Source of the DNA: Candidatus Brocadiia bacterium
GTDB taxonomy: Bacteria > Planctomycetota > MHYJ01 > JACQXL01
Assembly (NCBI GenBank): GCA_041658285.1
Contig: JBBAAP010000002.1
Span: forward strand, 119,029 to 183,028
DNA: 64,000 nucleotides
Direction: 5' to 3'
Shown: positions 19,946 to 59,608 of the stretch, in pieces
Position numbering within the stretch: position 1 is the stretch's first letter
How the letters are laid out: each line of letters starts with the position of its first letter
The notes under the pieces: generated by a model
Seen by the model: only the letters and a program-made list of their open reading frames with translations
Told to the model about the DNA's origin: nothing
The model's database searches: none
Made by a program: the position numbers and the translations under genes

Positions 19946-20698
19946 ATGTGGGACATTCTTATCGCCCGGTTGAAACAGAAATACCGGACCATACCGTATC
20001 CGAAAGGACTGCCCGTCCTGCCAGAGCGGTTTATCGGACGGCCGGCGCCGGTATCAAACAGCGCCGGGCATATAGCAGACGCGGTTAAGGCCTGCCCGAC
20101 CGCGGCATTAAAGATAAGCGCCGGCAATAACCTCAGCCTGGATATGGGCCGATGCGTATTCTGCGGCCAATGCGCCCGGATAGCGCCTGACGCCGTAACC
20201 TTCGGGCGTAACCACAGCCTGGCCGGACGAACCCGGGCCGAACTCATCCTTAAGGGAAAAGACCACAAAGCGCCGGAGCCATTGGATACCAAGCTCCTGA
20301 AACTGTTCGGCAAATCGCTCAAACTACGCCAGGTAAGCGCCGGCGGATGCGGCGCCTGCGAAGCCGATACCAACGTCTTAAACACGGTCGTGTTCGACCT
20401 CGGCCGGTTCGGAATCCAGTTCGTCGCCTCGCCCCGCCACGCGGACGGCCTGTTGATTACCGGGCCGGTAACCAAAAATATGAGGTTAGCCCTGGGAAAA
20501 ACCTATGCCGCCCTGCCCAAGCCAAAAATAGTCATTGCAACCGGCGCCTGCGCCATCTCCGGCGGGCTGTTCAGCGGGCATCCCGAATCCTGCGACGGAG
20601 CCGATACCATCGTCCCGGTAGACCTTTACATCCCCGGCTGTCCCCCACACCCGTTAACTATTCTTGACGGAATGCTCCGCCTTCTTGGCAAGGCCTAG
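19946..20698 (+). CDS. Ferredoxin domain fused to a NuoB/HyfI-like small subunit
   Basis: CPTAA..CVFCGQC; SAGGCGACE, SPRHAD, GACA, IPGCPP. Confidence 0.9.
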   Translation: MWDILIARLKQKYRTIPYPKGLPVLPERFIGRPAPVSNSAGHIADAVKACPTAALKISAGNNLSLDMGRCVFCGQCARIAPDAVTFGRNHSLAGRTRAELILKGKDHKAPEPLDTKLLKLFGKSLKLRQVSAGGCGACEADTNVLNTVVFDLGRFGIQFVASPRHADGLLITGPVTKNMRLALGKTYAALPKPKIVIATGACAISGGLFSGHPESCDGADTIVPVDLYIPGCPPHPLTILDGMLRLLGKA

Positions 20699-20793
20699 TG
20701 CCACTTGGAGCAAAGCGACTTAGTGGCACATTATCCCAACTATTACGTCGGGGCTAGGACCAGTTCGACTAAAAAGAGTTACATGGATATTAG
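20696..20793 (+). repeat. Two-hairpin dispersed repeat (family A), 1.5 units
   Basis: TAG-TGCCACT-T..TT-AGTGGCA-CATTAT-CCCAAC..GTCGGG, then a degenerate second unit from 20755. Confidence 0.65.
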
Positions 20794-21056
20794 ATTCCGT
20801 CTATTTAGCAGAAAATCCAGTTAAGCCCTTCGATTATTTAGGATAAATTTGTCTTAACTGGGCAATCATATTAATCAGCCCTTACTCCGAACTGGCTGGC
20901 AACCCATAGCGTTAAACTGGATTTCCAGAAATACCAATCCAAGGCATAAAAACACCACCCCCCACCCCCTCCGGGAGGACTCCCCTCCCCGTATATCCCC
21001 CCCGGGTTATCTATGGAAGCGGCAAGTGCTTCCTTCGCCTCCAATACAGTAAATCC

Positions 21057-21315
21057 CTTATGCCGGTGGCATAGTATATTTGTGCCACGTACATAATAGC
21101 CTTGTGCCGGTGGCATAGTATACTTGTGCTACGTACATAATAGTCTTGTGCCGGTGGCATAGTATACTTGTGCTACGTACATAATAGTCTTGTGCCGGTG
21201 GCATAGTATACTTGTGCTACGTACATAATAGTCTTGTGCCGGTGGCATAATATACTTGTGCTACGTACATAATTGGCTTATGCCGGTGGCATAGCAGACT
21301 TGTGCCGGTGGCATA
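21057..21315. repeat. Tandem array: five 44-bp units (each a 22+22 A/B dimer) plus two extra A subunits
   Basis: Units start at 21057, 21101, 21145, 21189 and 21233, with extra A subunits at 21277 and 21299. A=cttgtgccggtggcatagtata, B=cttgtgctacgtacataatagt. Confidence 0.95.
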
Positions 21316-21487
21316 AACGGTTTAAACCTATAAGGAGAGAGTTGGTTTTTGTATTTTGAAGGCGTGTACACCGAGAGCAAAGCCTCCCGCAGGGGCAATT
21401 TTTGTCACTTTGCCCTCAAAAACCCCTGATTTTAGGCAAAAAGTGACGATTTTTGTCATTTCTGATGTGTGTAGCGCCTGCAGGGTG

Positions 21488-22927
21488 TCACCGGACCCGT
21501 TGATGGCAAGCAACAGAAGGTTTACCCATATGATTAAGATAGTTAAAATAAAACTTGTTGTGCTTAAGCCAGCTTTTCACAATTCCCTTGCCGGCAAATT
21601 TCATAAAAGAACGATAAAAAGATGCCCTATGCGGTTTTGATGGCATTAGTTTTGTGACAGATGCGACTCTTTCAACGACAGTGTTCAAGGCGTCGTTGAA
21701 TGCGTTTGTGTATGAATAGAAATCGCTGAAGCATTCTATCAAACCGTTTTGCAGTTCGTAAGCGGTCATATTTGTCGGGGTAAACAGGGCGTGCAGCCCG
21801 TCGTATAATTCCCAGTTTTTGTGCAGAATCCTTTTTTCCTCTTCCAGTTTGAAATATGTCTTAGTCCCCGGCAAAGGAGTCAATATCGAGTACTGGACAT
21901 AATCAAGCTTGCTGTCGTGGCAAAAATCAGCCGTCATCTTAAAGACATCTTTGGTATCGGCATCGTTGCCCACGATAAACATGCCGTGCACTTCTATACC
22001 GTTGGCGTGAAAAACCCTGATTGAACGTTTTATGTCATCAACCGTTTGATGTTTGTTCATATCTTTCAGGCTTTGCGGGTTTATGGATTCGAAGCCGATA
22101 TATACTCTTTCACAACCGGCCTGTTTCATCTTGGCGATAAATTCCGGTTTTTTGGTTACTTCGGTTCTTAACTGAGTTGACCATGAGCGGTTAAATTCAT
22201 GTTCAATCATCATGTCAAGGAGCCTGGTTGTCTTTTCCGTATTGACGGCAAAATGGTCGTCCACGAAAAATATATGCCCAGCCCGGTATCTTGAAATCTC
22301 CTCAATAACCCTTTCGGCTGTCTGGGCCCGGTAATCCCTGCCGAACATTTTGGTAACAGAGCAGAAGTTACAATCATAAGGACAACCTCTGGACGTCATT
22401 AACGGCCAGGTGCGTATTTTTTCCCAGTTCCTGATAAGGGTAAAATCGGGAAGAGGCAGACCACCCAAGTTATCCGGCCTTGGCGCATATATCTTTTTAT
22501 CTTTAATCCTGCCGGACAGCACGTCCAGAATGATATTTTCGGCTTCTCCGATAACGACCTGGTCAAAATGCGGGATAACATCGTCCGGAATCATGCTGGC
22601 GTGGATTCCGCCGATGACGGTTCTGGATTCAAGTCCGTGTGATTCCCTGATTGATTTATATTCTTTTGCTATTTCCTTGCCCCGGGTAACCGTGGCGGTT
22701 ATACAGCTTAGGCATAAGATATCAACCGAAGCAAGTTCATCAGGACTGATTGCTCGGCCCGTTATATTCTCGTTAAAAACAGAGACGTCATATCCGGCAT
22801 CCCGCGCTATCGTTGCCAGGTATACCGGTCCCAACAGCGGGATGGTCATAAACCTGGCAAAGACATTGGAATGCGTGCCCATTGGCTCGACGAATAGAAC
22901 TCTTTTATTATACATTTTCTTTCCCAT
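21488..22927 (-). CDS. B12-binding domain radical SAM protein
   Basis: GGIHASM, TSRGCPYDCNFCSV, FFVDDHF, IGFES. Confidence 0.9.
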   Translation of the reverse strand: MGKKMYNKRVLFVEPMGTHSNVFARFMTIPLLGPVYLATIARDAGYDVSVFNENITGRAISPDELASVDILCLSCITATVTRGKEIAKEYKSIRESHGLESRTVIGGIHASMIPDDVIPHFDQVVIGEAENIILDVLSGRIKDKKIYAPRPDNLGGLPLPDFTLIRNWEKIRTWPLMTSRGCPYDCNFCSVTKMFGRDYRAQTAERVIEEISRYRAGHIFFVDDHFAVNTEKTTRLLDMMIEHEFNRSWSTQLRTEVTKKPEFIAKMKQAGCERVYIGFESINPQSLKDMNKHQTVDDIKRSIRVFHANGIEVHGMFIVGNDADTKDVFKMTADFCHDSKLDYVQYSILTPLPGTKTYFKLEEEKRILHKNWELYDGLHALFTPTNMTAYELQNGLIECFSDFYSYTNAFNDALNTVVERVASVTKLMPSKPHRASFYRSFMKFAGKGIVKSWLKHNKFYFNYLNHMGKPSVACHQRVR

Positions 22928-23489
22928 TCTCGCTTTCGTTAGAGCCAGTTAGTCCCGATGCCGCCGAAGGCGGTTCGGGGCGATACTGGGTCTTATCCCG
23001 ATTCACATCGGGGTTCATCTTGTTAAAATAGTCAATAACCAATAAACTTATGCCGAACAATACCAATGACATCGGCCATAATTTATAAGAAATAGTGAAG
23101 ACGAAGTATAAAACCAGGAAGACGGTTATGAACGATATCGCCATATAAATATGCACTTTGCCTTTGGCAAAAACGCTGGTCATAAAAAAACTCATCCCGA
23201 CAATACCCAAAAAAACCGGCCAAAGGTATGACAGAACCGTCCATGAAGTATTATTCAGGCAGAGGAAAAATATGCTCAGCAAAATCATGAATGAACCGAG
23301 CCAGATAAGCGCGGCATCTCTTCTTTGGCGGCTAAAGAACAGTAAAACAAAACCGCTTCCGGTTATAAGAATAAGGGCAGGCCAGAATTTGCTTATGCCG
23401 CTCAGCAGTGAATAGTTTTCAAGCACCAGAACCAGTCCGGCAATTATAAATAGTCCGGCTAAAGCAATGATACTTTTCTTGTTTTTCAA
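22908..23489 (-). CDS. Multi-pass membrane protein (LiaF/DUF5668-like) whose C-terminal tail is encoded by a palindromic repeat
   Basis: Repeated WPxxLI helices; TTG start; tail NPDVNRDKTQYRPEPPSAASGLTGSN lies over the repeat at 22938-23016. Confidence 0.7.
   Translation of the reverse strand: MKNKKSIIALAGLFIIAGLVLVLENYSLLSGISKFWPALILITGSGFVLLFFSRQRRDAALIWLGSFMILLSIFFLCLNNTSWTVLSYLWPVFLGIVGMSFFMTSVFAKGKVHIYMAISFITVFLVLYFVFTISYKLWPMSLVLFGISLLVIDYFNKMNPDVNRDKTQYRPEPPSAASGLTGSNESENGKENV
22938..23016 (+). repeat. Two-hairpin dispersed repeat (family A) inside a CDS
   Basis: GTTAGAGCCAGTTA-[gtcccga..ccgccGAAggcgg..tcggggc]-GATACTGGGTCTTAT-cccgattcacatcggg. Confidence 0.85.
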
Positions 23490-23600
23490 ATCCGACTCCT
23501 GTTGATTTCATTTCCCTTTATTTATCCCAACCGTAGTCCCTAAAAGAATGCTTCGCTAAGGCCGGTAGGCATAGGCCCAGGCTCTATGGTCACCACCTCG

Positions 23601-25370
23601 TTATTCGCCTTTGTCGGGCGGGGCGAAGTAGATAAAATCGCCTATGTAGGAAGACAGCGCTTCCCGGAACAGCCCTTCTTTATCTGCCGTCTTTTCGGTG
23701 ATACTGACCGGTATCAGTGTTTTGTAGGTTGCCGGATACCTCTTGTATGAGCGTTCGGGAATGTTGAATTTGTATTCGATATGGCCGGCTCCGGCCACGA
23801 CGATTACCTGTGATGCCGGGTTGTCGGCGGCTTTAAGGTAGTTGGCTATGGCCTCGCCGAAGGTTTCGTCCCAGACGCATTGCAAAACATACATCCGGTC
23901 TTCGTTGAACTTGGGCGACATCTTTTTCATCTCTTCAAATGACTTCATCACGAACTCGCGGTGCGCCTTATTGGAGGTGTCTATGTCTTTGGCAATAAGC
24001 TTCTGCTCGGCCGGAGTCAGTTTATCCCAGCCCTCGTCAACAAGCTTGTTCTTTATCTCTTTTTCCACGTTCAATCCCAGCAGTTTCAGGCCGTTCTCTT
24101 TGGCGTAGCGGACTAATCCGACATAATACAGCTCATACCATTCGTTGCTGAATCCTGCCCTGACCGCTTTATCAAACTCAGATTCGGTGATTTTTCCGGC
24201 GATATAATCGTCGCAGACCTGCTGTTTGGAACGGTACAGGAACTCCATTGCCAGAACGGCCTTGGGATTCTTCTGGGCCAGGCTTTCGAGGACCTTTTCC
24301 TGGAATTTGTGGTGAACCGAATTTGTATGCGATTCGGCCACATAAACAACCCGGATATCCTTAAGCCGTTCTATCAAAACATCATAATCCAGCACCTCAA
24401 ACGTGTCCAAATCAACGTATTTATTATACAATTCCGGTATTTTAAGCGATGCCAGCTTGACGACCGCCTTTGAAATCACTTCTTCCTCTGACGCACTCAA
24501 CTGAGCCCTTCTTTTAAACTGGGTTAGCTCGCTATCGGTGCCTGTTCCGGCGCTGACGGCCTTAGTGTCCGGCGCCGCCAGCAGTTCTTTTGCCTCGGGC
24601 GGAATAACTATCGCATCTCCCTTGTCATAATTTGAATAATTCATCTCCATCTTCATTTTTACGGCGGCTCCGGCCGCTTTCCCCTCCATATCAAGAATGA
24701 CCTTGGATAAAAGATAGGCGTCCTTGGCCACCCACATCTTTATTGTCACCTTGTCAAACTTGCCGGCCATACCCTGCACGCCGCTGCCGCCGAATGCTTT
24801 GTCGTTGATTGTCTCGGGGTTAACCGTCAGTTCTATGACCTGATAGGATTTGTCTCCTATTTTTTCCTCTTTGCTGATTAAGGCATCCTGGTTGATTCCC
24901 GGGATTTGGTTCAGGCCGGCCGGGAACATCTCCGCGGCTAATATCATAGACTTCTGGGCCGGCGATGCCAATGCCCACTTTTTGTCGGCCGGATCCATCA
25001 TAACCGCGTTTGTGTCATCTGAATAATATTCAAACGGCGTTTTTGTCAATCCGTTGCTCCCATCGATTAATTCGCCATGAGCATAGATATCCTTGTCATA
25101 TCTGGCGCTGTCGCAGTCAAGAATCCTGATATTCATTCCCATTACACCCATCTCCATCACTATTTTTGACGAGACGCTTTTAGCGTCGGCAAAGTTTTCC
25201 ACTGCCCTCTTGATAACACCCTTAGCATCCTTGGGCGCTTCTTTGACAACCGGCGCCACCGGCGGTGGCGGCACGATGGGTTTTTGGGCTCCGGATTGGC
25301 ATCCGGCGAATAATGCCGTTGATACTATCAGGGTGCATATTAACAAGTAGCGCTTATTGCCTGGTTTCAT
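23601..25370 (-). CDS. Lipoprotein: N-terminal LppX/LolA-like beta-sheet domain fused to a ChaN-family (haem-uptake/TIKI-like) domain
   Basis: Lipobox LFAGC; C-terminal VVYVAESHT..HHKFQ, LAMEFL, VVAGAGHIEY..IPER match ChaN; the N-domain call is tentative. Confidence 0.65.
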   Translation of the reverse strand: MKPGNKRYLLICTLIVSTALFAGCQSGAQKPIVPPPPVAPVVKEAPKDAKGVIKRAVENFADAKSVSSKIVMEMGVMGMNIRILDCDSARYDKDIYAHGELIDGSNGLTKTPFEYYSDDTNAVMMDPADKKWALASPAQKSMILAAEMFPAGLNQIPGINQDALISKEEKIGDKSYQVIELTVNPETINDKAFGGSGVQGMAGKFDKVTIKMWVAKDAYLLSKVILDMEGKAAGAAVKMKMEMNYSNYDKGDAIVIPPEAKELLAAPDTKAVSAGTGTDSELTQFKRRAQLSASEEEVISKAVVKLASLKIPELYNKYVDLDTFEVLDYDVLIERLKDIRVVYVAESHTNSVHHKFQEKVLESLAQKNPKAVLAMEFLYRSKQQVCDDYIAGKITESEFDKAVRAGFSNEWYELYYVGLVRYAKENGLKLLGLNVEKEIKNKLVDEGWDKLTPAEQKLIAKDIDTSNKAHREFVMKSFEEMKKMSPKFNEDRMYVLQCVWDETFGEAIANYLKAADNPASQVIVVAGAGHIEYKFNIPERSYKRYPATYKTLIPVSITEKTADKEGLFREALSSYIGDFIYFAPPDKGE

Positions 25371-25494
25371 ATTAGTTCCTTTCTTATTATGTTATTTGAC
25401 ATATCTCATTACCCGATAACCGGGCAAGGAATGATTCACACATTACTTAATCGCACCTTGGAAGTCAATTTATTTGTCTAATGTGAATAGTGAC

Positions 25495-25653
25495 ATCCCG
25501 ATTATTTACTAACCTATGTCCCGAAAGAATTCGGGACATAGTATCATATTGAAGTAATCGGGATTACACGGCCGTAAGCCTCTCGATCAGATTTTATCTG
25601 TTCTGCGAGGCTAACGGACATTATTCACGCCACTACGTGAATAACCCGTGTAA
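25495..25653 (-). repeat. Large nested multi-hairpin intergenic element related to family A
   Basis: atcccgatta/taatcgggat encloses tatgtcccgaa/ttcgggacata; ttacacgg/ccgtgtaa encloses two further hairpins. Confidence 0.7.
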
Positions 25654-25720
25654 AGAATCTTCCCTAAAAATACGATAACAATATCTGGCTCGTTAACAAT
25701 CAAGCAACCTAATGTGAAAG

Positions 25721-26074
25721 GTGTTGTTTATGTCTAAAACTCACATACCGGATAATATCGAAGTAGTTGATACCGAACTGGATTTATCGGCGGCCAGATT
25801 GTTGGAATACCTGAACTCCAATAAGAACGCGGCCGTGAAAGAGCTCCTGGCCCATTACGAGGAAATCATCTCTCCCAAACTGCAAGGTCTATTGCCGCCG
25901 GAATCAGCGGCGCGGCTGGGCATCCGCATGACACTGGGCCGGCTCCAACGCCAGGGCAAAGTCAAAGTCCTGCGCGACGCCGATACCGGCCAGGACCGGG
26001 TCTGCCTGGCAGAAGACCTGGTTTTGAGGAATAAATGGATATCCGCACTGAAAAGCTCACCTAACGTGCTTTAA
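25721..26074 (+). CDS. Hypothetical protein (possibly winged-helix)
   Basis: Fills the gap with no overlap; no recognisable motif. Confidence 0.55.
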   Translation: MLFMSKTHIPDNIEVVDTELDLSAARLLEYLNSNKNAAVKELLAHYEEIISPKLQGLLPPESAARLGIRMTLGRLQRQGKVKVLRDADTGQDRVCLAEDLVLRNKWISALKSSPNVL

Positions 26075-44705: not shown

Positions 44706-44718
44706 ATTTAACCTTTTT

Positions 44719-44793: not shown

Positions 44794-44815
44794 CACATTT
44801 TAACAAATACCCTTT

Positions 44816-46024: not shown

Positions 46025-46059
46025 AAAAGCTCCTTTCGATATCTAATTTTTACTTTCTT

Positions 46060-46132: not shown

Positions 46133-46162
46133 GTTTATTTCAATACGCTGTTCGAACGCAAA

Positions 46163-46190
46163 ACTATAGCAGTTTAATATTTAGTGTCAA
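46163..46190 (-). promoter_or_regulatory. Internal sigma70 promoter for tRNA-Thr(GGT)-tuf
   Basis: TTGACA-16 nt-TATAGT with an extended TG on the minus strand. Confidence 0.55.
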
Positions 46191-46274
46191 GTTATTTATA
46201 TATTTTGTATTAAATTCCTGACTTTAAAATTCAGCCGTGATATCCCTCCCCTAAAACCATCATTTTATCTAAGT

Positions 46275-46350
46275 TGGAGCGGCGGACCGGGGTCGAACCG
46301 GCGACCGTCTGCTTGGAAGGCAGATGTTCTACCAATTGAACTACCGCCGC
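46275..46350 (-). tRNA. tRNA-Gly(TCC)
   Basis: Acceptor GCGGCGG/CCGCCGC, loop CTTCCAA, CCA encoded. Confidence 0.96.
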
Positions 46351-46353
46351 TCT

Positions 46354-46485
46354 TACTCCCTGTTAGCTATCGCCTGAATATTTTCAGGAGATAGCGTTAC
46401 AGCGGAGTTAGACCCCGCACCTATCTTTCCGGGATAGGTGCGGGGTATAAGAAATTCTAAGGCTCACGTTTCGCCAAGAATTTCT
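46354..46485 (+). repeat. Cluster of hairpins in the tRNA-Gly/tRNA-Tyr spacer (family A unit plus accccgcacc/ggtgcggggt IR plus agaaattct/agaatttct IR)
   Basis: ctgtTA-[gctatc..gatagc]-GTTacag, followed by two further inverted repeats (IRs). Confidence 0.65.
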
Positions 46486-46488
46486 AAA

Positions 46489-46571
46489 TGGGCAGGGAGG
46501 GATTCGAACCCCCGAAGCTAAAAAGCAACAGATTTACAGTCTGTCCCCTTTGGCCGCTTGGGTACCTGCCC
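46489..46571 (-). tRNA. tRNA-Tyr(GTA), no encoded CCA
   Basis: Acceptor GGGCAGG/CCTGCCC, loop CTGTAAA, long variable arm. Confidence 0.95.
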
Positions 46572-46599
46572 CGTTATCCCGCCTTAGCAGTATAACGGG
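46570..46599. mobile_element. Miniature CCCGTTA...TAACGGG element (family B) overlapping the tRNA-Tyr 5' end
   Basis: cccgttatcccgccttagcagtataacggg. Confidence 0.6.
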
Positions 46600-46622
46600 G
46601 CATGCCCAAAACAAGTTCTATA

Positions 46623-46694
46623 AGCTGGGAGCGGGATTTGCACCCGCAACCGCCGGTTTACAAAACCGGAGCTCCGCTGTTGAGCTATCCCAGC
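46623..46694 (-). tRNA. tRNA-Thr(TGT), no encoded CCA
   Basis: Acceptor GCTGGGA/TCCCAGC, loop TTTGTAA, T-loop TGCAAAT. Confidence 0.93.
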
Positions 46695-46726
46695 CCCGTT
46701 ATCCCGCCAGAGGGCGGGATAACGGG
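46695..46726. mobile_element. Miniature family B element abutting the tRNA-Thr(TGT) 5' end
   Basis: cccgttatcccgcc-agag-ggcgggataacggg, a perfect 14-bp IR. Confidence 0.65.
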
Positions 46727-46764
46727 GCCGGCATTCTCAATCTTAGTTATCCTATTCCGCCTTA

Positions 46765-46793
46765 CTGATACCAAACAGGTTATTACCTGTCAA
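46765..46793 (-). promoter_or_regulatory. sigma70 promoter of the tRNA-tuf operon with an overlapping palindrome
   Basis: TTGACA-17 nt-TATCAG; ACAGGT-TATT-ACCTGT palindrome at 46775-46790. Confidence 0.5.
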
Positions 46794-46818
46794 TATTTTT
46801 GCTTATCCTGATAGGATT

Positions 46819-47799
46819 CTATATCTTTTGAGACCGGCCCTTTAAAGTCGCCCATTCCGGGCACAACATCAAATGCCACCATAACAAAGCAAAGTAAACC
46901 ACCAACATCTGCCTTATACGCCTTACCAAACAAAATGTCAGTATGCACCCTGCCAGATTCAGCGCAAAACCAAGAATTATCTTTATCGGCTTTAACAGCC
47001 GGAAGACTAAATATATCCACAGTGCATGATGTTTCCGGTAAAATTTATACAACGAATTGAGGTATTCTATTTTAGCCGCCACCACAATCTTCTTTTTGGA
47101 CTGTCCTTGAATGTGATAAATGCCGGACTCCGGCACAAACCAGACCTGACAACCTTTGCCAGTCATGCGCCGGCACCAATCGGTTTCTTCCAGAAAAAGG
47201 AAATAATTCTCATCCAGCATACCGACCTCTTTTATCGCCTCCTCCCGCACCATCATAGCCGCGCCGATGACCGATTCCACCTCAATAGGGCTCGAATACG
47301 CCTGCCGCTTGCTGGGATACCGCCCCGGCGCTAGAATCCGTAACAAGCTTTTGCCCAAAAGCTCGCTTTCCAATCCCGGGATATTATCGAACGAATGCTG
47401 CCGCGAACCGTCCTGATTGAGCAGTTGTCCGGTTATAATACCCGCCCTAGGGTTGGCATCCATAAACCTAACCAGGCTTTCCAAAGACCGTTCGGTCAGC
47501 AAGATATCGCTGTTAAGAATAAAATAATATTTAGCCGGCCTGTCACGCAAACCGGCATTGACCGCTCCGGCAAACCCAATATTGCGTTCCAGCCGGATAA
47601 TTTCAGCAGTCGGGTAATACTGGCGAACGGCCTCGATACTGCCGTCGGATGAGCCGTTATCAACAACCGTAACCAGGCATCCGGATGTTTTAACCTTGTT
47701 AAAAACGGAGTTCAGGCACCCCAAAAGCAGGTCTTTGGTGTTGTAATTAATAACAATGATGGATACTTCAGGCACGGCTAATGACAGTATAGGGCGCAA
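46819..47799 (-). CDS. GT2-family glycosyltransferase
   Basis: VSIIVINYN, VVDNGSSDGS, NIGFAGAVN, ILNSD, YFLFLEETDWC. Confidence 0.92.
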   Translation of the reverse strand: MRPILSLAVPEVSIIVINYNTKDLLLGCLNSVFNKVKTSGCLVTVVDNGSSDGSIEAVRQYYPTAEIIRLERNIGFAGAVNAGLRDRPAKYYFILNSDILLTERSLESLVRFMDANPRAGIITGQLLNQDGSRQHSFDNIPGLESELLGKSLLRILAPGRYPSKRQAYSSPIEVESVIGAAMMVREEAIKEVGMLDENYFLFLEETDWCRRMTGKGCQVWFVPESGIYHIQGQSKKKIVVAAKIEYLNSLYKFYRKHHALWIYLVFRLLKPIKIILGFALNLAGCILTFCLVRRIRQMLVVYFALLWWHLMLCPEWATLKGRSQKI

Positions 47800-47856
47800 T
47801 TCAATAATTCACTGCGAATTATATACTGCGCCCTATTTTCTTCCGGGAATTACAGG

Positions 47857-48060
47857 TTAATCTTCCAGGACAAAGGTAATGCTCATATGAACCCGATACT
47901 CGATTATTTTGCCGTTTTCCACCTTAACATTAGTTTTGGTCACTTCCGCGCCGGTGATACCGCGCAGAGTCTTGGTTGCCCTCCTGATGCCTTCCTGTAC
48001 CGCCTCGGTAATCCCTTTGGGTGATGACGCCACTATCTGTGTCACTCTTGCTACTGCCAT
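47857..48060 (-). CDS. Dodecin-family protein
   Basis: MAVARVTQIVASSPKGITEAVQEGIRRATKTLRGI..EYRV.M.ITF; SD AAGGAG. Confidence 0.9.
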   Translation of the reverse strand: MAVARVTQIVASSPKGITEAVQEGIRRATKTLRGITGAEVTKTNVKVENGKIIEYRVHMSITFVLED

Positions 48061-48073
48061 ATTCAACTCCTTT

Positions 48074-48300
48074 TAGAAACTGTTAGGGATTTAGCCATGA
48101 AATAGCTAAAGACCGTTACAGTTTCTTATCCCGACTATTCCGTCGGGGTTCTAGAGCCACTTAAACATATTGACACACAGTGGCAATATGCTTTTAGTGG
48201 GTCTTATCCAGTTATGATAGCATATCAGAACTGGGTTCTTGCCAGTTAGGATGGTCCCGATGTGACATCGGGACCAACCGTTACTGAGCCTTATCTAATC
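48074..48300 (+). repeat. Three tandem family A units (78 bp, 87 bp, partial)
   Basis: Units start at 48074, 48152 and 48239, with covarying outer stems AAACTGT/ACAGTTT, CCACT/AGTGG and CAGT/ACTG. Confidence 0.85.
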
Positions 48301-48374
48301 AGCCTCCTTTTTACCTTATCATCTTTATCTTGTCAAGAAACCAGGAATATTTTATCCATACTGCCAGATAACAA

Positions 48375-49307
48375 ATGCTTAATCTATTAGAATTAGTCAC
48401 TGCCGCCCTGTTTATCGGAGTTGTATTCTCCGTATTCACCGCCGGATTCATCGTCATCATCGCCAAGCGATGTTTTATCAAGTCGTCACCTGATAAAAAA
48501 CCCGATTTCCTGGATAAGCCTAAAATCAAGTTTACCATCATCGCCTTAGCCATCATAGGCATCGTCTGCATCCTTTACGGCTACTTTATCGAACCGAACT
48601 GGATAAAGGTTACCAATCTTAAATTAGTTTCTCCTAAAATAGGCGGCGGAGGCAAAACCGTCCGGATTGTCCATATCTCGGATTTGCATATCGAATCTGA
48701 AGGCCGGCGCGAGCTGGCCGCGCCGGAACTGATAAATAGCCAAAACCCTCAAATTATTATCCTGACCGGCGATTACCTCAACGACGAAAAAGGCCGTCTC
48801 TATCTGGCAAACTTCCTATCCAAACTCAAAGCGCCCTACGGCATCTATGCCGTGCCGGGTAATTTCGAGTGGCGCTACAAAAGCGATGACATCCTGGCCG
48901 CAAACGGAGTCCTGTCAGGCAACAACATCAGCATCAACCTGGATAACCTTAATGTATGCCTGTATCTCTGCGGACTGAATAGTCCAACCCTACCCGAAAC
49001 GCTCGATCCTAAGCAGTATAACATATTTGTATTCCACAGCCCAGACCTGATACCCGAAGCCACGGCAAAGGGATTTGACCTGTATCTGGGCGGGCATACG
49101 CACGGCGGCCAGGTGCGTCTGCCCTTTTACGGCGCCCTGATTACATTCTCTAAATATGGCAAAAAATACGAGATGGGTTATTATAAGGAAAACCACATGA
49201 ACGCCTACATCAACAGCGGGCTGGGTATGGAAGGCGGGTTTGCGCCCAGGGTGAGATTCCTGTCCCGGCCGGAAATCGCGATCATAGATATTGTGACACC
49301 AGAATGA
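48375..49307 (+). CDS. Membrane-anchored metallophosphoesterase (YkuE-like)
   Basis: HISDLH, LTGDY, VPGN, HSPD, GHTHGGQ, RPEI. Confidence 0.9.
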   Translation: MLNLLELVTAALFIGVVFSVFTAGFIVIIAKRCFIKSSPDKKPDFLDKPKIKFTIIALAIIGIVCILYGYFIEPNWIKVTNLKLVSPKIGGGGKTVRIVHISDLHIESEGRRELAAPELINSQNPQIIILTGDYLNDEKGRLYLANFLSKLKAPYGIYAVPGNFEWRYKSDDILAANGVLSGNNISINLDNLNVCLYLCGLNSPTLPETLDPKQYNIFVFHSPDLIPEATAKGFDLYLGGHTHGGQVRLPFYGALITFSKYGKKYEMGYYKENHMNAYINSGLGMEGGFAPRVRFLSRPEIAIIDIVTPE

Positions 49308-50556: not shown

Positions 50557-50640
50557 GGTAAATATCCTTTCTTAGTGAATCCATATAACCACAAAGGCAC
50601 AAAGAACACAAAGAATTATTATATTTTAATTTTCCATATT

Positions 50641-50680
50641 AAAAAGAAAAGGGCGGATTCAAATCAATGAATCCGCCCTC
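50641..50680 (-). terminator. Terminator of the 23S-5S operon
   Basis: gggcggattc/gaatccgccc stem plus a T-run on the minus strand. Confidence 0.8.
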
Positions 50681-50690: not shown

Positions 50691-50811
50691 CCCCGGCAGT
50701 GACCTACTTTCCCACCGAATAAATCATCAGTAGTATCATTGGCCCCAAGGGCTTAACGGCCGTATTCGAGATGGGAACGGGTGTGGCCCCTTGGGAATTG
50801 GACCACCGGGA
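50691..50811 (-). rRNA. rrf: 5S rRNA
   Basis: CCCGGTGG...ACACCCGTTCCCATCTCGAATAC..GTTAAGC..GGGAAAGTAGGTCACTGCCGGG. Confidence 0.93.
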
Positions 50812-50912
50812 GTTAAAAATAAAACGTACAATACGCTGGCAGCTTTAAGCAGCTATTACTGCCAGTCATAGCCGGCTTTAACAGCCGACTATATGGGCTC
50901 AAGGATAAAAAA

Positions 50913-53946
<3,034 letters not shown>

Positions 53947-53988
53947 TTTTTTATCCTAAAGCCCATTGTTATTGCACTAATTACCAAA

Positions 53989-54000
53989 TTTTCAAAGAAC
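53989..54000 (-). promoter_or_regulatory. rrn boxA antitermination site
   Basis: GTTCTTTGAAAA in the 23S leader. Confidence 0.75.
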
Positions 54001-54064
54001 GACCTTAACTGCCGGGACTATTCCCCTGTTACAAGGAATAATTTTATCGGCAAACAAGTCTGGT

Positions 54065-54093
54065 ACATTAGCAAACGGAAAAGTCCTTGTCAA
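54065..54093 (-). promoter_or_regulatory. sigma70 promoter of the 23S-5S operon
   Basis: TTGACA-17 nt-TAATGT with an AT-rich upstream region. Confidence 0.8.
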
Positions 54094-54345
54094 GTATTTT
54101 TATTGTTTTATAAAAAAATATATTAACCGCGGATTTTACGGGTTTAATAAATTTACTATTATACATTTAATCAGACAAATATGCAGTTTGTGTTTATTCA
54201 TGATTTTATAGATAACACCTTATGCGAATCACGATCAAAACCATTCAAAATTTTAGGGGCTTGACTGTACTTACCCTGAAACAAACCAAAATCTGCCCTG
54301 CAAAAATGGCATATCCACTATGAAATGCCAAGGTGTACAGAAATT

Positions 54346-54697
54346 GATTTATAGTAGTTATGAATAAGATTTATGATGGTTACGGACAGAATTCATAGTG
54401 ATTATGAATAAGATTTATACTAGTTATGGGCATGATTTATGATGCTTATGAATAAGATTTATAGTGGTTATGGACAGGATTTATAATGGTTATGAACAGA
54501 ATTTATGATGGTTATGAATAAAACTTATAGTAGTTACGAACAGGATTTATACTGGTTATAAATAAAACTTATAGTGGTTATGAACAGGATTAATAATGGT
54601 TATGAATAAGATTTATAGTGGTTATGAACAGGATTTATAATGGTTACGAATAAGACTTATAATGGTTATTAACAAGATTTATAGTGGTTATGGATAA
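54346..54697. repeat. Tandem array of sixteen degenerate 22-bp units
   Basis: Consensus gatttatagtggttatgaa(c/t)a(g/a); units every 22 bp from 54346 to 54676 with no indels. Confidence 0.95.
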
Positions 54698-54916
54698 GTA
54701 TCCAGGTGGTATAGGGGTAGGGTACCCCCACCCCCTTGAGCCAAATATGCATTATATTAGGATTTAGGCGCGAAAAAAAACTTATTTGCCGAAAACAGCA
54801 CATGGGAAAGGGCTAAATTACTGCGTTATTATGCCAGAGACAGCATGCCAAAGGCAGACAAGAATTCCGTTTCGAGAGAACAAAATCCAGTGGTCTATCC
54901 CGCCTACCACCCCTAC

Positions 54917-55603: not shown

Positions 55604-55701
55604 CTCTGCCAATAACTCGTTATACTCGAACTGCCCTAATCCCACTCCGCTACGCTTCGGGGATAACGTGGCAGTAACTCGCTTCGCTCGAACTGCCACT
55701 A
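55604..55701 (-). repeat. Two family A units; the first TAG is the livF stop codon
   Basis: TAGTGGCAGTT-cgagcGAAgcga-GTTACTGCCACGTTAT-cccc..ggga-TTAGGGCAGTT-cgagtataacga-GTTATTGGCA. Confidence 0.8.
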
Positions 55702-56403
55702 ACCCCCCAGGTACGCTTCTATAACCTTAGGATTATGCAACAACGCCTGGGCTTTGTCAGTCAGGGTTATCCGGCCGGTTTCCATAACATATCCGCGATG
55801 GGCCACCTGCAACGCCATCCGGGCGTTCTGCTCGACCAGCAATATAGTCGTGCCGGACTTGTTTAATTCTTTGATTATGTCGAATATCCGGGTGACGATG
55901 ATGGGCGCCAGGCCGAGCGACGGCTCGTCCAGCAACAACAGCTTGGGCCGGGCCATCAGCGCCCGGGCGATGGCCAGCATCTGCTGTTCACCGCCGGAAA
56001 GAGTACCGCCCAACTGGCCGGACCGCTCTTTCAATATCGGGAACAGCCCGAAAACCCGCTCCAGGTCCGGCTTGATGGCCTCGGTATCGGTCCGGACGAA
56101 TGCGCCCATCTGCAGGTTTTCCAGCACGGTCAGGCGCGGGAAGATGCGCCGGCCTTCGGGTATCTGGGCGATACCTTTGGCCACTATCTGGTGCGCCGGC
56201 AGATGGTCTATCGGCTGACCCTCGAAGGTTATCGATCCACGACTGAGCTGGTTGATGCCGGATATAGCCATCAGGGTGGTGGTCTTGCCGGCCCCGTTGG
56301 CGCCGATGATGGTGACAATTTCGCCGGCATTGACCTCGAAGGAGATTCCCTTCAAAACCTCTATCGGCCCGTACCCGCTATGTATGTCAGTCAGTTTGAG
56401 CAT
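55699..56403 (-). CDS. livF: Branched-chain amino acid ABC transporter ATPase
   Basis: GANGAGKTT, PEGRRIF, LSGGEQQML, LLDEPS, EAYLG. Confidence 0.95.
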   Translation of the reverse strand: MLKLTDIHSGYGPIEVLKGISFEVNAGEIVTIIGANGAGKTTTLMAISGINQLSRGSITFEGQPIDHLPAHQIVAKGIAQIPEGRRIFPRLTVLENLQMGAFVRTDTEAIKPDLERVFGLFPILKERSGQLGGTLSGGEQQMLAIARALMARPKLLLLDEPSLGLAPIIVTRIFDIIKELNKSGTTILLVEQNARMALQVAHRGYVMETGRITLTDKAQALLHNPKVIEAYLGG

Positions 56404-56413
56404 AATCAATACA

Positions 56414-56481
56414 ACCACGAAAACACGAAATAACTAAATCACTAAATATTTCGCATCTTCTTACTTTCGCGCTTTCGTGGT
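56414..56481. repeat. Family C inverted repeat in the livG-livF spacer
   Basis: accacgaaaacacgaaa...tttcgcgctttcgtggt. Confidence 0.65.
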
Positions 56482-57393: not shown

Positions 57394-58608
57394 CTAATCC
57401 GCCGTTTCAGCGGTCAGTTCCACCTGCCGGCGCTTACTGCTGATTAAGCCCTGTGGCCTGAATAGCATCATCAGCACCATAGTGGCGCCGTATATCAACA
57501 GCCGGTAGTCCTGGAACGCCGGCATCTGGTCACGGATAAACCAGGGCAGGATGAACAGGATTACCGCTCCTAAAATTACGCCCAGGGTGTTTCCCATTCC
57601 ACCCAGGATGACCATGGCCAAAATCAGTGCCGACTGTTCGAACCGGAACGCTTCCGGGGTGATGTAGTTCATCTTGGCCGCGTAGAGTACTCCGGCAAAC
57701 CCGGCCCAGACGGCGCTGATGACGAAAGCCAGGATTTTTAACTGAGTGGTGTTGATGCCCATACTGGTGGCGGCCATCTCGTCTTCGCGCAGGGCTATCC
57801 AGGCCCGGCCTATGCGAGAATTATTGAGACGCCCTATTATGACCACGGTCAGGATGACCATAATAAAGGTCAGGTAATAGTAATGGAGCGGCTGTTTCAG
57901 GACCCAGCCGAATATTTCCGGATGGTTGATTTTGCCGCTGAGCAGTTCGTTGGGCAGGCCTTTTTCGCCTCCGGTCAGGTTGGGCAGGTTCTTGAGCAGG
58001 TAGCGGACCAGCTCACCGAAGCCGAGCGTGACGATGGCCAGGTAATCACCGCGCAGGCGCAGGCAGGGTAATCCGACAATCAGCCCGCACAGCCCGGTCA
58101 CCACCGCAGCCAGGACCAGCCCCAGCCAGAACGGGCAATTGAGCATGATGGAGGCCAGCGCGAAGGTATAAGCGCCGATGGCCCAGAACCCGGCATAGCC
58201 CAGCACCAGCAGTCCGGCCGAGCCGACCACGATATTCAGACCCAGGGCCAATATTATGTAAATGCCGGTGTCAATGGCCAGGTTGAGGTGCTTGCCCGGG
58301 AGCACCCAGGGAATCACGGACAGGACGACCAGCAGTGCCACTACTTCCAATTTTACGGCGGCCGGTTTGGCCATCTTCTCGGTGGTATAGCGGAAAGGTT
58401 CGGCCAGGAGCGAGCCCAGCTTGGCAAGACCTTTCCACCGGCTAAAACCCAACCAGGCCAAACCGCCGACCAGAACCAAGGCGCTGATAACTACCGGACC
58501 GATGCGCCATACGACGCCGTCATCGACCATCTTTATCCCGACGATGGGCAGGGTTATCAGCCCCATCCACAATGCCATCAAGAATACTTTTTTGAAAGTC
58601 AGTTTCAT
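57394..58608 (-). CDS. livM: Branched-chain amino acid ABC transporter permease
   Basis: LGLNIVVG.AGLL.LGY, LRLRGDYLAIVTLGFGE, GRAWIALREDE. Confidence 0.95.
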   Translation of the reverse strand: MKLTFKKVFLMALWMGLITLPIVGIKMVDDGVVWRIGPVVISALVLVGGLAWLGFSRWKGLAKLGSLLAEPFRYTTEKMAKPAAVKLEVVALLVVLSVIPWVLPGKHLNLAIDTGIYIILALGLNIVVGSAGLLVLGYAGFWAIGAYTFALASIMLNCPFWLGLVLAAVVTGLCGLIVGLPCLRLRGDYLAIVTLGFGELVRYLLKNLPNLTGGEKGLPNELLSGKINHPEIFGWVLKQPLHYYYLTFIMVILTVVIIGRLNNSRIGRAWIALREDEMAATSMGINTTQLKILAFVISAVWAGFAGVLYAAKMNYITPEAFRFEQSALILAMVILGGMGNTLGVILGAVILFILPWFIRDQMPAFQDYRLLIYGATMVLMMLFRPQGLISSKRRQVELTAETAD

Positions 58609-58609
58609 A

Positions 58610-59521
58610 CTATGCTTTGTCGGCCAGCCGTTCGCCCAACAGTCCTCTGGGCCGGATAATCAATACCAGCATCAGGATAACGAAGGCGTAGACCTCTTTG
58701 TAATCAGGCGAGATATAAGCCACGCCCAAGGTTTCGACTATGCCAAGCAGGAACCCGCCCAGCATGGCACCGGGAATGTTGCCAATGCCGCCCAGGACGG
58801 CCGCGGTAAAGGCCTTAATACCGGTCATATAACCGACATCAAAACGGGTGGTGGAAATATACATAGAGACCATCACGCCGCCGGCCGCGGCCAATGCCGA
58901 GCCGATGATGAACGTCAGGGCGATGATCCTGTTTATGTCAATGCCGACCAGTGCGGCCATCTTCTTGTCCTGAGCCGTGGCCCGCATGGCCCGGCCGACC
59001 TTGGTCCGGCTGATGAACAGGTGCAAGCCGAGCATTATCAGTATGCACGAAACGATGATGACTATTTCCAGAAGGGATATCCGGGCCGAGCCGACCAGGT
59101 AAGGGTGGCTGGTGAGCGGTTCCTTGAAGAATGCCGGGAAGGCCTTATTCTCCTTGCCCTGGGCGACCATAATGTAGTTCTGCAGGAAGGTGGACATGCC
59201 GATGGCGCTGATAAGAGCGGACAGCACCGGCGCGTGGCGCAGGCGGCGGTAAGCCACCTTTTCAATGGTGAAGCCATATCCGGCGGCAAAGGCGACGCTG
59301 ATAATCAGCGCGATGAACAGGCACAGGATTGGCAGGCCGGCAATCGGGGCGAAGGTGGATAGCACAGCCAGCGAAATGATGCCCAGATAAGCGCCAATCA
59401 TATAGATTTCGCCGTGGGCGAAGTTAATCATCCCGAGTATGCCGTAGACCATTGTGTAGCCGAGGGCAATCAGCGCATAGATACCGCCCTGAATCAAGCC
59501 GTTGACTAAATGTTGCAGCAT
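58610..59521 (-). CDS. livH: Branched-chain amino acid ABC transporter permease
   Basis: LIALGYTMVYGILGMINFAHGE, GRAMRA, KAFTAAVLGGIG; start re-assigned to MLQHLV. Confidence 0.93.
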   Translation of the reverse strand: MLQHLVNGLIQGGIYALIALGYTMVYGILGMINFAHGEIYMIGAYLGIISLAVLSTFAPIAGLPILCLFIALIISVAFAAGYGFTIEKVAYRRLRHAPVLSALISAIGMSTFLQNYIMVAQGKENKAFPAFFKEPLTSHPYLVGSARISLLEIVIIVSCILIMLGLHLFISRTKVGRAMRATAQDKKMAALVGIDINRIIALTFIIGSALAAAGGVMVSMYISTTRFDVGYMTGIKAFTAAVLGGIGNIPGAMLGGFLLGIVETLGVAYISPDYKEVYAFVILMLVLIIRPRGLLGERLADKA

Positions 59522-59550
59522 ACTCTGGACGAACAGGCCTTTCTCCGGGT

Positions 59551-59608
59551 TAGTGGCAGCAGGAACGAAGTGACGTACTGCCACGTTATCCTAAACGAAG
59601 TCCATGGG
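59551..59608 (+). repeat. Family A unit in the livK-livH spacer
   Basis: TAGTGGCAG-[caggaacGAAgtgac]-GTACTGCCACGTTAT-cc... Confidence 0.7.

Follow-up and report, generated by a model that had tools for sequence, protein, structure and literature searches.

Covarying two-hairpin repeats of uncultivated Planctomycetota resemble tagged REP elements

The 64-kb window, by which we mean the whole stretch of DNA analyzed here, carries about 12 copies of a repeat family (family A), all of them intergenic. Each unit reads, in order, (T/C)TAG, a first hairpin (H1), one or two nucleotides, TTAT, and a second hairpin (H2) of the form CC..GG. The copies fall into two subtypes, short and long. Bit scores given below come from a covariance model, R1, that was trained only on copies from other genomes and on none from the window; related loci are designated by L numbers. 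The copies and associated features are as follows.

20695 to 20753, + strand: copy A, short type, with CTAG, an H1 stem TGCCACT/AGTGGCA around TGGAGCAAAGCGACT, CA-TTAT and H2 (CCCAAC..GTCGGGG); 51.2 bits (E 3.9e-14), DNA fold z -2.55; a NuoB-like ORF (19946-20698) uses its TAG (20696-20698) as stop codon.
20754 to 20793, + strand: copy A2, a decayed unit directly after A, read by eye as CTAG-GACCAGT-TCGACTAAAAAGAGTTAC..; partial match at 20763-20782 (12.2 bits, E 0.58).
22939 to 23013, + strand: copy B, long type, TTAG-AGCCAGT-TA, a 30-nt inner hairpin, GAT-ACTGGGT-C-TTAT and H2 (CCCGATTCACATCGGGG); 11.9 bits, inner hairpin z -4.0; antisense to a B12/radical-SAM gene whose ATG (22927) lies 11 nt from the CTAA.
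25495 to 25563: a separate long hairpin.
25564 to 25653, + strand: copy C, a TTAC-tag variant read by eye as TTAC-ACGG-CCGT-AAGCCTC..GAGGCT-AACGG-ACATTAT-TCACG..CGTGA; bracketed by ACACGG/CCGTGT, inner hairpin z -4.8, no R1 match.
41445 to 41547, - strand: a sister-family composite, CGGCAGT-TTGA..GAATT-ACTGCCG-AG-TATCC-(TCGGCTG..CAGCCGA)-TGG; 16.6 bits (E 0.018) at 41501-41551; also present in L003, L008 and L012.
44718 to 44792, + strand: copy D, long type, antisense, in the EF-Tu/L33 spacer, H2 CCCGACTATTCCGTCGGG; CTAA 12 nt ahead of the L33 ATG (44705); DNA fold -22 kcal/mol (z -5.64).
46353 to 46412, + strand: copy E, long type, TTAC tag and TTAGA linker, with a tRNA gene on either side; forms the left half of an inverted pair.
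46413 to 46445, no strand assigned: hairpin H2 common to E and K, CCCCGCACCTATC..GATAGGTGCGGGG.
46446 to 46487, - strand: copy K, short type, TTAG-AAATTCT-TGGCGAAACGTGAGCCT-TAGAATTT-C-TTATA; begins 2 nt after the tRNA at 46489-46571, with an orthologous copy in L035; the whole inverted pair E/H2/K (46353-46487) folds at -43.2 kcal/mol (z -11.2).
48073 to 48148, + strand: copy F, an antisense long-type copy, final element in the 5' leader of dodecin; its CTAA directly adjoins AAGGAG, and the ATG comes next at 48060; DNA fold z -6.34; orthologues in L035 and L036 differ in their stems and keep the pairing.
48151 to 48234, + strand: copy G, long type, CTAG tag, H2 CCAGTTATGATAGCATATCAGAACTGG; 14.1 bits, inner hairpin z -3.5.
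48238 to 48295, + strand: copy G3, degenerate long type with CTTG in place of the tag and H2 absent; inner hairpin z -6.1.
55604 to 55639, - strand: copy I2, partial short type in tandem after I1, TTAG-GGCAGT-TCGAGTATAACGAGT-T-ATTGGC; 22.3 bits (E 2.2e-4) at 55610-55633.
55641 to 55702, - strand: copy I1, short type, the best copy, TTAG-TGGCAGT-TCGAGCGAAGCGAGT-T-ACTGCCA-CG-TTAT-H2; 64.4 bits (E 1.3e-18), DNA fold z -2.34; its TAG (55701-55699) is the stop codon of an ABC ATPase-like ORF (55699-56418).
59550 to 59608, + strand: copy J, short type, AGGA..GACG subclass, TTAG-TGGCAG-CAGGAACGAAGTGACGT-ACTGCCA-CG-TTAT-CCTAAACGAAGTCCATGGG; 49.8 bits (E 1.1e-13); antisense to flanking genes.

An earlier note had described a dispersed two-hairpin family in this DNA, and we confirmed its architecture at ten sites, those of copies A, B, D, E, F, G, G3, I1, I2, and J. 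Two copies are added (46446-46487(-) and the decayed 20754-20793). Items that are weaker or of another kind are the variant copy C, the separate hairpin beside it, the sister-family composite, and 50836-50889 in the 23S-5S spacer, which has neither tag nor model match and is not counted.

H1 is 31 to 36 nt long in a whole unit of 60 to 80 nt, and its 7-bp outer stem is free in sequence provided that pairing persists. The short type has as its interior a T/TT internal loop and a single C:G pair (alternatively G:C or T:A), then a tandem G.A/A.G platform that leads through 2 bp to a triloop; a variable, long hairpin takes its place in the long type. The small asymmetric loop and the cGAAg-type mini-hairpins of inner loops, both noticed earlier, are borne out, the former as T or TA opposite TT or GTT. 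In H2, the TTAT tag is followed by CCCG-NN, a conserved TATTCC loop, and N'N'-CGGG, and purine-rich variants exist. Each of the two hairpins is thus headed by a TTA-containing tag, and almost all copies have a TTA on each flank of H1 (TTA-G..N-TTA-T). The TTAG tag is present in 29/29 aligned copies, its first T not having been used in selection; CTAG is found in window copies A and G. The purine platform is confined to the TTAG strand, which is the better folder in 43 of 52 copies under RNA folding parameters. We found no conserved unpaired core resembling a ligand pocket in family A elements.

Family A is real, and it is the fold that is conserved, not the sequence. R1 scored window copies at 64.4, 51.2, 49.8, and 22.3 bits (E 1e-18 to 2e-4), so that a covariance model built from outside copies finds three of them at 50 to 64 bits. 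The same model produced 70 matches in 224 kb of MAG loci and zero in two chance-match control loci. A loose regular expression alone is only mildly enriched in the window, with 18 matches versus 7.45 in shuffles (maximum, 14). The claim that the outer stem changes its letters while staying paired was upheld by a covariation test that took in three inner pairs not used for copy selection: 95.2% of cells are paired, compensatory changes occur at 7 of 10 pairs, and none of 500 shuffles attains the score. An unbiased metagenome sample gave 103 paired positions among 110 free stem positions, compared to a permutation mean of 62.8 (maximum, 78), with 15 different stem pairs among 22 copies. The stems of H2 also covary about the fixed TATTCC loop (CCCGAC/GTCGGG, CCCGGC/GCCGGG, CCCGCT/AGCGGG, CCCGCG/CGCGGG, and CCCGTC/GACGGG).

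The host range of family A is a small clade of uncultivated Planctomycetota, where units occur as singletons, 66-nt tandem arrays, inverted pairs with a common H2, and nested insertions. Near-identical 66-nt head-to-tail arrays are present in L045 and L053, the window holds a triple tandem at 48073-48295, and mosaic clusters are also seen. Two comparisons of orthologous loci juxtapose filled and empty sites: L032 has 172 nt that are extra relative to L050 (~82% identity), where two genes lie 7 nt apart, and L019 has ~103 nt that are extra relative to L045 (~72-77% identity), divergence that is too high in both comparisons to fix exact element ends or a target duplication. Copy D is likewise missing from the same EF-Tu/L33 spacer in L035 and L039. 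Judged from the two filled and empty site comparisons, family A spreads or is lost as DNA, in agreement with the DNA-level element proposed earlier.

The relationship to transcription differs between the subtypes. The earlier observation that copies occur in both orientations holds for short-type copies (13 sense, 16 antisense). The long type departs from it: this type sits upstream of genes, and about nine of its 12 copies are antisense, their CTAA directly preceding a Shine-Dalgarno sequence and start codon (within 20 nt). Spacers holding short-type copies comprise 23 co-directional, 13 convergent, and 6 divergent cases, against 104, 35, and 31 among background spacers, and both orientations are present within one replichore of the window. 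In four copies the TAG of the tag also terminates the reading frame of the gene upstream. Three lineages retain the dodecin leader, with outer stems that are different yet paired, and the window, L035, and L036/L037 all preserve the order tRNA, sense unit, H2, antisense unit, tRNA; the leader and the post-tRNA element occupy orthologous sites across lineages with 82-86% identical EF-Tu. An RNA-level role is plausible for part of the family because the long type is antisense-biased and the dodecin leader is kept in three lineages, although conservation at these two sites fits RNA function and old insertions equally.

Taken further, these data could mean that family A is primarily a cis-acting RNA module serving as gene punctuation, with duplication merely its mode of acquisition. 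On the antisense side, a stem-loop set ending in CUAA before a ribosome-binding site would act as a 5' stabilizer, the end of a processing product, or a translation enhancer; on the sense side, it would fold into a 3'-end or processing structure downstream of stop codons and tRNAs. The proximity of long-type copies to start signals, always antisense to the TTAG strand, the retained dodecin leader, and the retained tRNA arrangement all speak for this reading, and RNA action has been proposed for published REPs too (PMC3733652). We nevertheless consider it rather unlikely as the primary explanation: in the 5'-leader copies the conserved G.A platform lies on the untranscribed strand, the short type has no orientation preference (13:16), and orthologous sites without copies, such as L050 with its genes 7 nt apart, show no visible compensation. 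Such a function also poorly explains near-identical tandem arrays and nesting, and the elements have neither a pocket-like unpaired core nor an Rfam match.

The insertion sites themselves speak for a mobile DNA element and also bear on a second alternative. Nested copies enter at a fixed point after ..GAGTTA, just 3' of the TTA within another copy, and the junctions read ..TTA|TTAG, so that the host TTA precedes the nested unit's own TTAG while the far side lacks a TTA. A TTA stands immediately 5' of TTAG in 17/66 copies versus a 1.8% background, many of these junctions belonging to one composite subfamily and therefore not being independent. Units also sit between a module's TTA and its H2 (L030 5198, L046 4131, and L032). 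If the unit were a miniature inverted-repeat derivative of an IS5/PIF-like DDE transposon, the TTAs of TTAG and TTAT would be its target duplication and the outer stem of H1 its terminal inverted repeats, consistent with the TTA on both sides of H1, the insertions ahead of H2, and what may be an ATA duplication at the filled site of L019. However, transposase-bound terminal repeats should be constant, and here at least 15 different stems covary. A length of 31 to 36 nt is far under the usual element size, the model gives no role to the conserved internal non-canonical pairs or to the second hairpin, and the nested units lack the far-side TTA. Neither a transposase gene nor a multi-copy ORF was found near copies, and we regard this origin as improbable.

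Still more improbable is an identity as folded sites for recombination, either integron attC sites or those of another tyrosine recombinase, which are recognized as single-stranded hairpins with extrahelical bases: structure conserved without sequence, terminal structures varying from 3 nt to a long hairpin, GTT beside the 3' arm, and an asymmetric internal loop are shared features, but copies lie between housekeeping genes, tRNAs, and rRNA instead of in cassette arrays, TA faces GTT, the arms are not complementary RYYYAAC/GTTRRRY boxes, and the window has no integrase gene.

Searches for a Y1/HUH gene (phmmer, a scan for an HUH..Y motif, and Pfam searches of candidate ORFs) found none in the window, as stated earlier, or in ~500 kb of related loci; phmmer used two probes, and the searches may miss divergent class 3 enzymes. 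The related loci examined contain no tnpA or tnpB ORF between inverted or separated ends that would mark an autonomous copy. An Rfam scan of the window at gathering thresholds returned rRNA and tRNA only, and lenient scans of 44400-48400 and 20600-25800 returned nothing over the elements. Intrinsic terminators were rejected as an identity, as T-runs are missing after both hairpins on both strands; canonical terminators stand apart from the elements at ~44490-44530 (after the L33 gene) and ~50640-50680 (after 5S rRNA). A match to a known RNA motif or an ordinary terminator, which the earlier note had named as grounds for dropping its proposal, was thus not found.

The closest likeness is to the GTAG-tagged REP/BIME elements (Di Nocera et al. 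2013, PMC3733652; Nunvar et al. 2010, PMC2817692), which are short extragenic imperfect palindromes at high density, as are family A units. In both, one end bears four unpaired nucleotides that finish in TAG and can double as a stop codon, subfamilies are distinguished by complementary substitutions in the stem, and loops range from 3 nt up to inner hairpins. Published tagged REPs form head-to-head, tail-to-tail, and head-to-tail dimers and clusters (PMC3733652), and both groups occur as singletons, inverted dimers, head-to-tail clusters, and mosaics. GTAG-tagged REPs have been reported in Planctomycetes before, in R. baltica (PMC3733652; PMC2817692). The tags share TAG but differ in that published variants (GYAG, GTRG, and similar) retain the first G, whereas family A has TTAG/CTAG. 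Unlike GTAG-tagged REPs, family A has a second, different hairpin (TTAT-H2 with its TATTCC loop), the tandem G.A platform within H1, systematic nesting of copies in one another, and one subtype tied to ribosome-binding sites. REPs lie mostly downstream of ORFs in convergent or co-directional spacers, and REP genomes carry a RAYT (Y1 HUH) gene, typically flanked by the REPs. REPINs (Bertels and Rainey 2011, PMC3116915) are inverted pairs folding as one long structure, comparable to the E/H2/K pair; they are symmetric doublets, however, and most family A copies are single units or head-to-tail arrays.

Two further groups share traits with family A. The ends of IS200/IS605 elements and of their ORF-less derivatives (PATEs), which are moved by the Y1 HUH enzyme TnpA, likewise carry two different subterminal hairpins. 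Recognition as folded single strands with irregular stems, insertion beside a short specific sequence (TTA in family A) apparently without obvious duplication, and a tendency to settle beside or inside similar elements are further traits that family A may share. Family A differs in its unit of only 60 to 80 nt, its freely varying stems, its two orientations within one replichore, and the lack of any tnpA/tnpB-bearing copy among those seen. Class 3 TnpA-Y1 "REPtron-like" systems (Quentin et al. 2018, PMC6006769), found in Planctomycetes, the phylum of family A, and in Acidobacteria, involve atypical secondary structures in high copy number whose 5' tetranucleotide foot is conserved, and stand between IS elements and REPtrons (PMC6006769). 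Their foot is CnGA, not TTAG, and no class 3 gene was found here; this relation is only a lead. Several observations count against a REP/BIME reading: the missing Y1/HUH gene (window plus ~500 kb), a TTAG/CTAG rather than GTAG tag, both orientations in one replichore, unlike IS200/IS605, the long-type bias (antisense, beside Shine-Dalgarno sequences), and orthologous-site conservation. The earlier description of an undescribed REP-like system thus applies to the family itself, previously uncatalogued and lacking an Rfam match, but not to the kind of element, tagged REPs being already known, including in Planctomycetes.

With some reservation, we favor the interpretation that family A consists of REP/BIME-like, non-coding small hairpin modules that spread and are lost at the DNA level in this clade of uncultivated Planctomycetota. 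The form under selection would be a folded single strand, as pairing is conserved without sequence and the G.A platform is on one strand only; this strand is most likely single-stranded DNA, because short-type copies occur irrespective of transcription direction, and would be read by a trans-acting, structure-specific enzyme, presumably a Y1/HUH (RAYT-like) nuclease. New units may land directly 3' of TTA, including TTAs within existing units, which would explain nesting, head-to-tail arrays, and inverted pairs alike. Some copies would also have been co-opted, the long type supplying a stable stem-loop just ahead of ribosome-binding sites and the TAG tag a stop codon.

The family A repeat consists of four parts: an unpaired (T/C)TAG tag, a first hairpin (H1) whose outer stem is about 7 bp long, a linker of 1 to 2 nt followed by TTAT, and a second hairpin (H2) that starts with CC and ends with GG. 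Reading the named loci bears out the two-hairpin architecture described in the earlier note, and the inner part of H1 distinguishes two subtypes, short and long. The copies in the window are as follows.

20695-20753, forward strand, copy A, short type
22939-23013, forward strand, copy B, long type
25564-25653, forward strand, copy C, long type
44718-44792, forward strand, copy D, long type
46353-46412, forward strand, copy E, long type
46446-46487, reverse strand, copy K, short type
48073-48148, forward strand, copy F, long type
48151-48234, forward strand, copy G, long type
48238-48295, forward strand, copy G3, long type
55604-55639, reverse strand, copy I2, short type
55641-55702, reverse strand, copy I1, short type
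59550-59608, forward strand, copy J, short type

The inner H1 of the short type comprises a T, a C:G pair, a tandem G.A/A.G, 2 bp, and a triloop (for example, T-CGA-GC-GAA-GC-GAG-TT), and that of the long type comprises TA, a hairpin of 29 to 36 nt, and GTT. The long inner hairpin has a different sequence in each copy and folds much better than its shuffles (z of -3 to -6.2 each), and whole units folded as DNA reach z of -2.3 to -6.3. A structural regular expression regained the listed copies and added copy K, which has its H2 in common with copy E and so forms an inverted pair (DNA folding z of -11.2); on its own, this pattern is only mildly above chance (18 matches versus 7.45 in shuffles). 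Several loci attributed to the family in the earlier note fall outside it. The locus at 50836-50889 was dropped, as it is rRNA spacer with neither a tag nor a match to R1, the covariance model of the short type. At 25495-25563, immediately upstream of copy C, lies a separate 69-nt near-perfect hairpin of another architecture (ATCCCGATTA..TAATCGGGAT, inner CTATGTCCCGAA..TTCGGGACATAG). The 41442 locus (41445-41547) belongs instead to a sister family, (CTCT)GGCAGT-TTGAG..GAATT-ACTGCCAGG-TAT(CC)-[TCGGCTG..CAGCCGA]-ACTAT/TGG, which also occurs in loci L003, L008, L012, L015, L019, L029, and L034 from other assemblies, where its copies are often fused with, or host to, family A units.

Using the 22-nt H2 common to copies A, D, and F as a probe, we recovered 30 loci from JAZDFB01 and JAZDFP01, two Planctomycetota MAGs. 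The probe also matched twice in other phyla without the upstream module; these exact matches (L009 7671-7692, in Patescibacteria MAG H41-bin011_1, and L025 5130-5151) are probably due to chance, and mis-binning of L009 is conceivable because its MAG has the site label “H41” in common with the family-bearing Hainich H41 contigs. The probe-found loci hold 29 distinct short-type copies that align cleanly, with 95.2% of cells paired on the proposed structure and compensatory changes in 7 of 10 pairs, a score that no shuffle and no slid register approaches. The outer stem served to select these copies, whereas three inner pairs did not, and these covary as well (C:G/G:C 18:8; G:C/A:U/C:G 14:11:3; C:G/U:A 19:6). 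R1, built from these 29 outside-window copies, matches the window at 64.4, 51.2, 49.8, and 22.3 bits and the long type more weakly. The earlier note had also proposed a covariance-model search for further copies, and R1 delivers them: 70 matches over 224 kb of MAG loci and 0 in two control loci. An unbiased metagenome scan, with the tag, inner motif, and TTATCC fixed and five of seven stem positions left free, returned 22 matches with 15 different stem pairs from three sample sets (JGI metagenome Ga0265292, with contigs of up to 401 kb; Ga0315284; and Hainich groundwater). Among these, 103 of 110 free positions are paired, against a permutation mean of 62.8 and a maximum of 78. The claim that the stem stays paired as its sequence changes holds in the scan. 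H2 covaries too, as CCCG-NN/N'N'-CGGG with AC/GT, GC/GC, CT/AG, CG/CG, and TC/GA around a fixed TATT(C/T)C loop, and has a second, purine-rich class. The module pattern has 0 matches in viral contigs.

The window is a bacterial chromosome segment with 23S and 5S rRNA genes at 50691-53944 on the minus strand, no 16S gene beside that pair, four tRNAs, EF-Tu, L33, IMP dehydrogenase, dodecin, and a hydrogenase/Nuo-like operon. Among named EF-Tu relatives, the nearest come from MAGs with the label Planctomycetota, at no more than 86% identity. Other features of the window include, at 54283-54763, the 22-nt unit TTATGAATAAGATTTATAGTGG, repeated in tandem about 20 times in a 1-kb ORF-free stretch directly upstream of the 23S rRNA 5' end, and a low-GC region (0.37) at 36001-38000, where a gene for an ATP:guanido phosphotransferase (McsB-like) adjoins a 390-aa ORF without a Pfam match (36426-37598). 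What looks like a separate conserved or mobile noncoding module of about 500 nt lies at 20957-21458, with 44-nt (2 x 22) tandem repeats (..TTGTGCCGGTGGCATAGTATACTTGTGCTACGTACATAATAG..) at 21013-21349; it is 95% identical to positions 80-581 of L043, a Ga0265292 contig, and the flanks differ on both sides.

Two other metagenome assemblies contain the window DNA at 100% identity, and strain-level polymorphism was rejected as a source of comparison: L001, L002, and L059 do not differ from the window at all (100% identity), and the differences between L036 and L037 are N runs from scaffolding. An all-against-all comparison of loci supplied orthologous stretches from different genomes, and the presence/absence comparison suggested in the earlier note yields filled and empty sites, evidence for movement at the DNA level. 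In L032, a 172-nt three-module composite separates a stop codon from the start codon that follows; the matching site in L050 (about 82% identity) has no composite, and 7 nt separate its two genes. A 103-nt sister-family unit in L019, possibly flanked by ATA on both sides, is missing from L045. Copy D, in the EF-Tu/L33 spacer, is absent from L035 (6-nt spacer) and L039 (23 nt), and the dodecin leader holds three units in the window versus one each in L035 and L036.

Copies stand as singletons, in head-to-tail arrays of near-identical 66-nt units (at least five in L045, four in L053), and as inverted pairs around a single H2, both in the window and, in a like design, between tRNA genes in L035 and L036/L037. 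In nested composites, an entire unit sits within the H1 of another, always right after ..GAGTTA, ..GAATTA, or ..GCCTTA and before the 3' arm; other units lie between a module's TTA and its H2. Among 66 strong short-type copies, TTAG is preceded by TTA in 17 (1.8% background) and by GGG, with which a preceding H2 ends, in 9. One composite subfamily accounts for several of the 17, and the independent TTA-junction events are therefore fewer.

The two types differ in their relation to genes. Short-type sites fall in 23 co-directional, 13 convergent, and 6 divergent spacers (background, 104, 35, and 31), and copies in co-directional spacers are 13 sense and 16 antisense. Roughly 9 of 12 long-type copies are antisense, ending in CTAA followed at once by a Shine-Dalgarno sequence and start codon, as at the window dodecin, L33, and radical-SAM genes and in L010, L016, L017, L030, and L035. 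The view that copies occur in either orientation to transcription therefore stands for the short type and not for the long. In four copies (window A and I1, L008 at topoisomerase I, and L028), the upstream ORF terminates in frame at the TAG of the tag, as has been published for GTAG REPs (PMC3733652). Mechanical ORF starts also enter repeats (47857-48066, 58610-59584): the dodecin ORF is called from TTG 48066, where the form on record is 67 aa from ATG 48060, and the GTG start at 59584 falls within copy J. In these MAGs, the repeats will mislead gene callers through spurious starts and ORFs that run into elements.

A REP-like element acting at the DNA level is the best-supported reading of these data, one toward which we lean with modest confidence, and the HUH enzyme it calls for is something we infer. 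A role in RNA is a serious partial rival, unlikely as the whole explanation, and probably coexists with the DNA-level role for the long subtype. The dodecin leader keeps its position in three lineages while the outer stems differ and stay paired (AAACTGT/ACAGTTT, ACCCAGT/ACTGGCT, and GAGTCAGT/ACTGACTC); RNA selection, gene conversion from master copies, or repeated hot-spot insertion could each produce this conservation. The G.A platform forms on the TTAG strand only, as its complement would have C.T mismatches, and RNA-parameter folding makes that strand the more stable in 43 of 52 copies, which together point to selection on a folded single strand. Under DNA parameters, whose treatment of tandem G.A is poor, the strands do not differ (23 of 52), and the asymmetry of G.T versus A.C mismatches is too noisy to use. 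In the short type, the TTAG strand is the transcribed one in only about half of cases, and in 5'-leader copies it is the nontranscribed strand. This favors single-stranded DNA as the recognized form and makes RNA roles secondary to it.

Understanding of REP-type repeats is most advanced in Proteobacteria, whose system is defined by its GTAG tag and RAYT enzyme. The nearest described kind to family A is this GTAG-tagged REP/BIME superfamily, with which it shares an unpaired tag that ends in TAG, subfamilies with complementary stems, variable loops of up to 27 bp, the formation of dimers and clusters, and the donation of stop codons. Family A differs in its two-hairpin unit, in a conserved noncanonical core (tandem G.A), and in often inserting into copies of itself; because its tag is TTAG or CTAG in place of the defining GTAG and the RAYT link is putative, we file it as a variant of this kind and not a member. 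GTAG-tagged REPs are also present in a planctomycete, R. baltica (PMC3733652). IS200/IS605-derived elements resemble family A in having two different end hairpins and insertion beside a short motif, but no autonomous family A copy was seen in the loci examined. No Rfam family matches at gathering or lenient thresholds, terminators are rejected (no T-run; canonical terminators are found elsewhere), and neither the DDE-type MITE nor the attC reading passes its defining tests.

The earlier note's statement that the window holds no HUH enzyme gene agrees with our phmmer, motif, and Pfam results, and its proposed search for RAYT, TnpA-Y1, or HUH genes near copies found none in about 500 kb of genome pieces. 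Approximate IS200 TnpA and E. coli RAYT probes gave no true phmmer match in 288 kb and 215 kb, with every ORF of 70 aa or more covered; the sole match, weak and IS200-like (window 53981-54208), is a low-complexity false positive. An HUH..Y motif scan of every ORF down to 70 aa over about 500 kb gave 0 matches, Pfam revealed no such enzyme among weak candidates and window ORFs of unknown function, and nuclease or transposase domains were not found in ORF 36426-37598 and its neighbors. ORFs between inverted copies (L008, L018, L034) are not transposase-like, those of L008 encoding a radical-SAM enzyme and topoisomerase I. Multicopy ORFs near repeats were rejected as kinase-like paralogues. As RAYT genes usually occur once per genome and the search covered pieces of these genomes, such a gene may lie elsewhere in them. 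Class 3 Y1 enzymes of Planctomycetes, described together with atypical high-copy structures and a CnGA foot (PMC6006769), are a lead to the missing enzyme.

A fuller version of the DNA-level reading, possible but doubtful in its entirety, is a self-targeting family whose single-stranded hairpins would be read by structure. TTAG-H1, with its tandem G.A platform, and TTAT-H2, with its fixed TATTCC loop, would be recognized by a nonclassical enzyme (not a GTAG-specific RAYT), either a Planctomycetota class 3 Y1 or something undescribed. Insertion after TTA, including within the family's own hairpins, would yield nested fold-within-fold mosaics, which the host would have domesticated as modular gene punctuation: leader stem-loops flush with the ribosome-binding site, stop codons supplied by the tag, and spacers between tRNAs. 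If the enzyme is found, family A would provide a compact natural substrate series, many stems in one fold, for a nuclease that reads DNA shape and not sequence. The long subtype, ending exactly at ribosome-binding sites, offers a testable case of selfish hairpins turned mRNA leaders, within an unusual and well-defined family from an uncultivated Planctomycetota clade.
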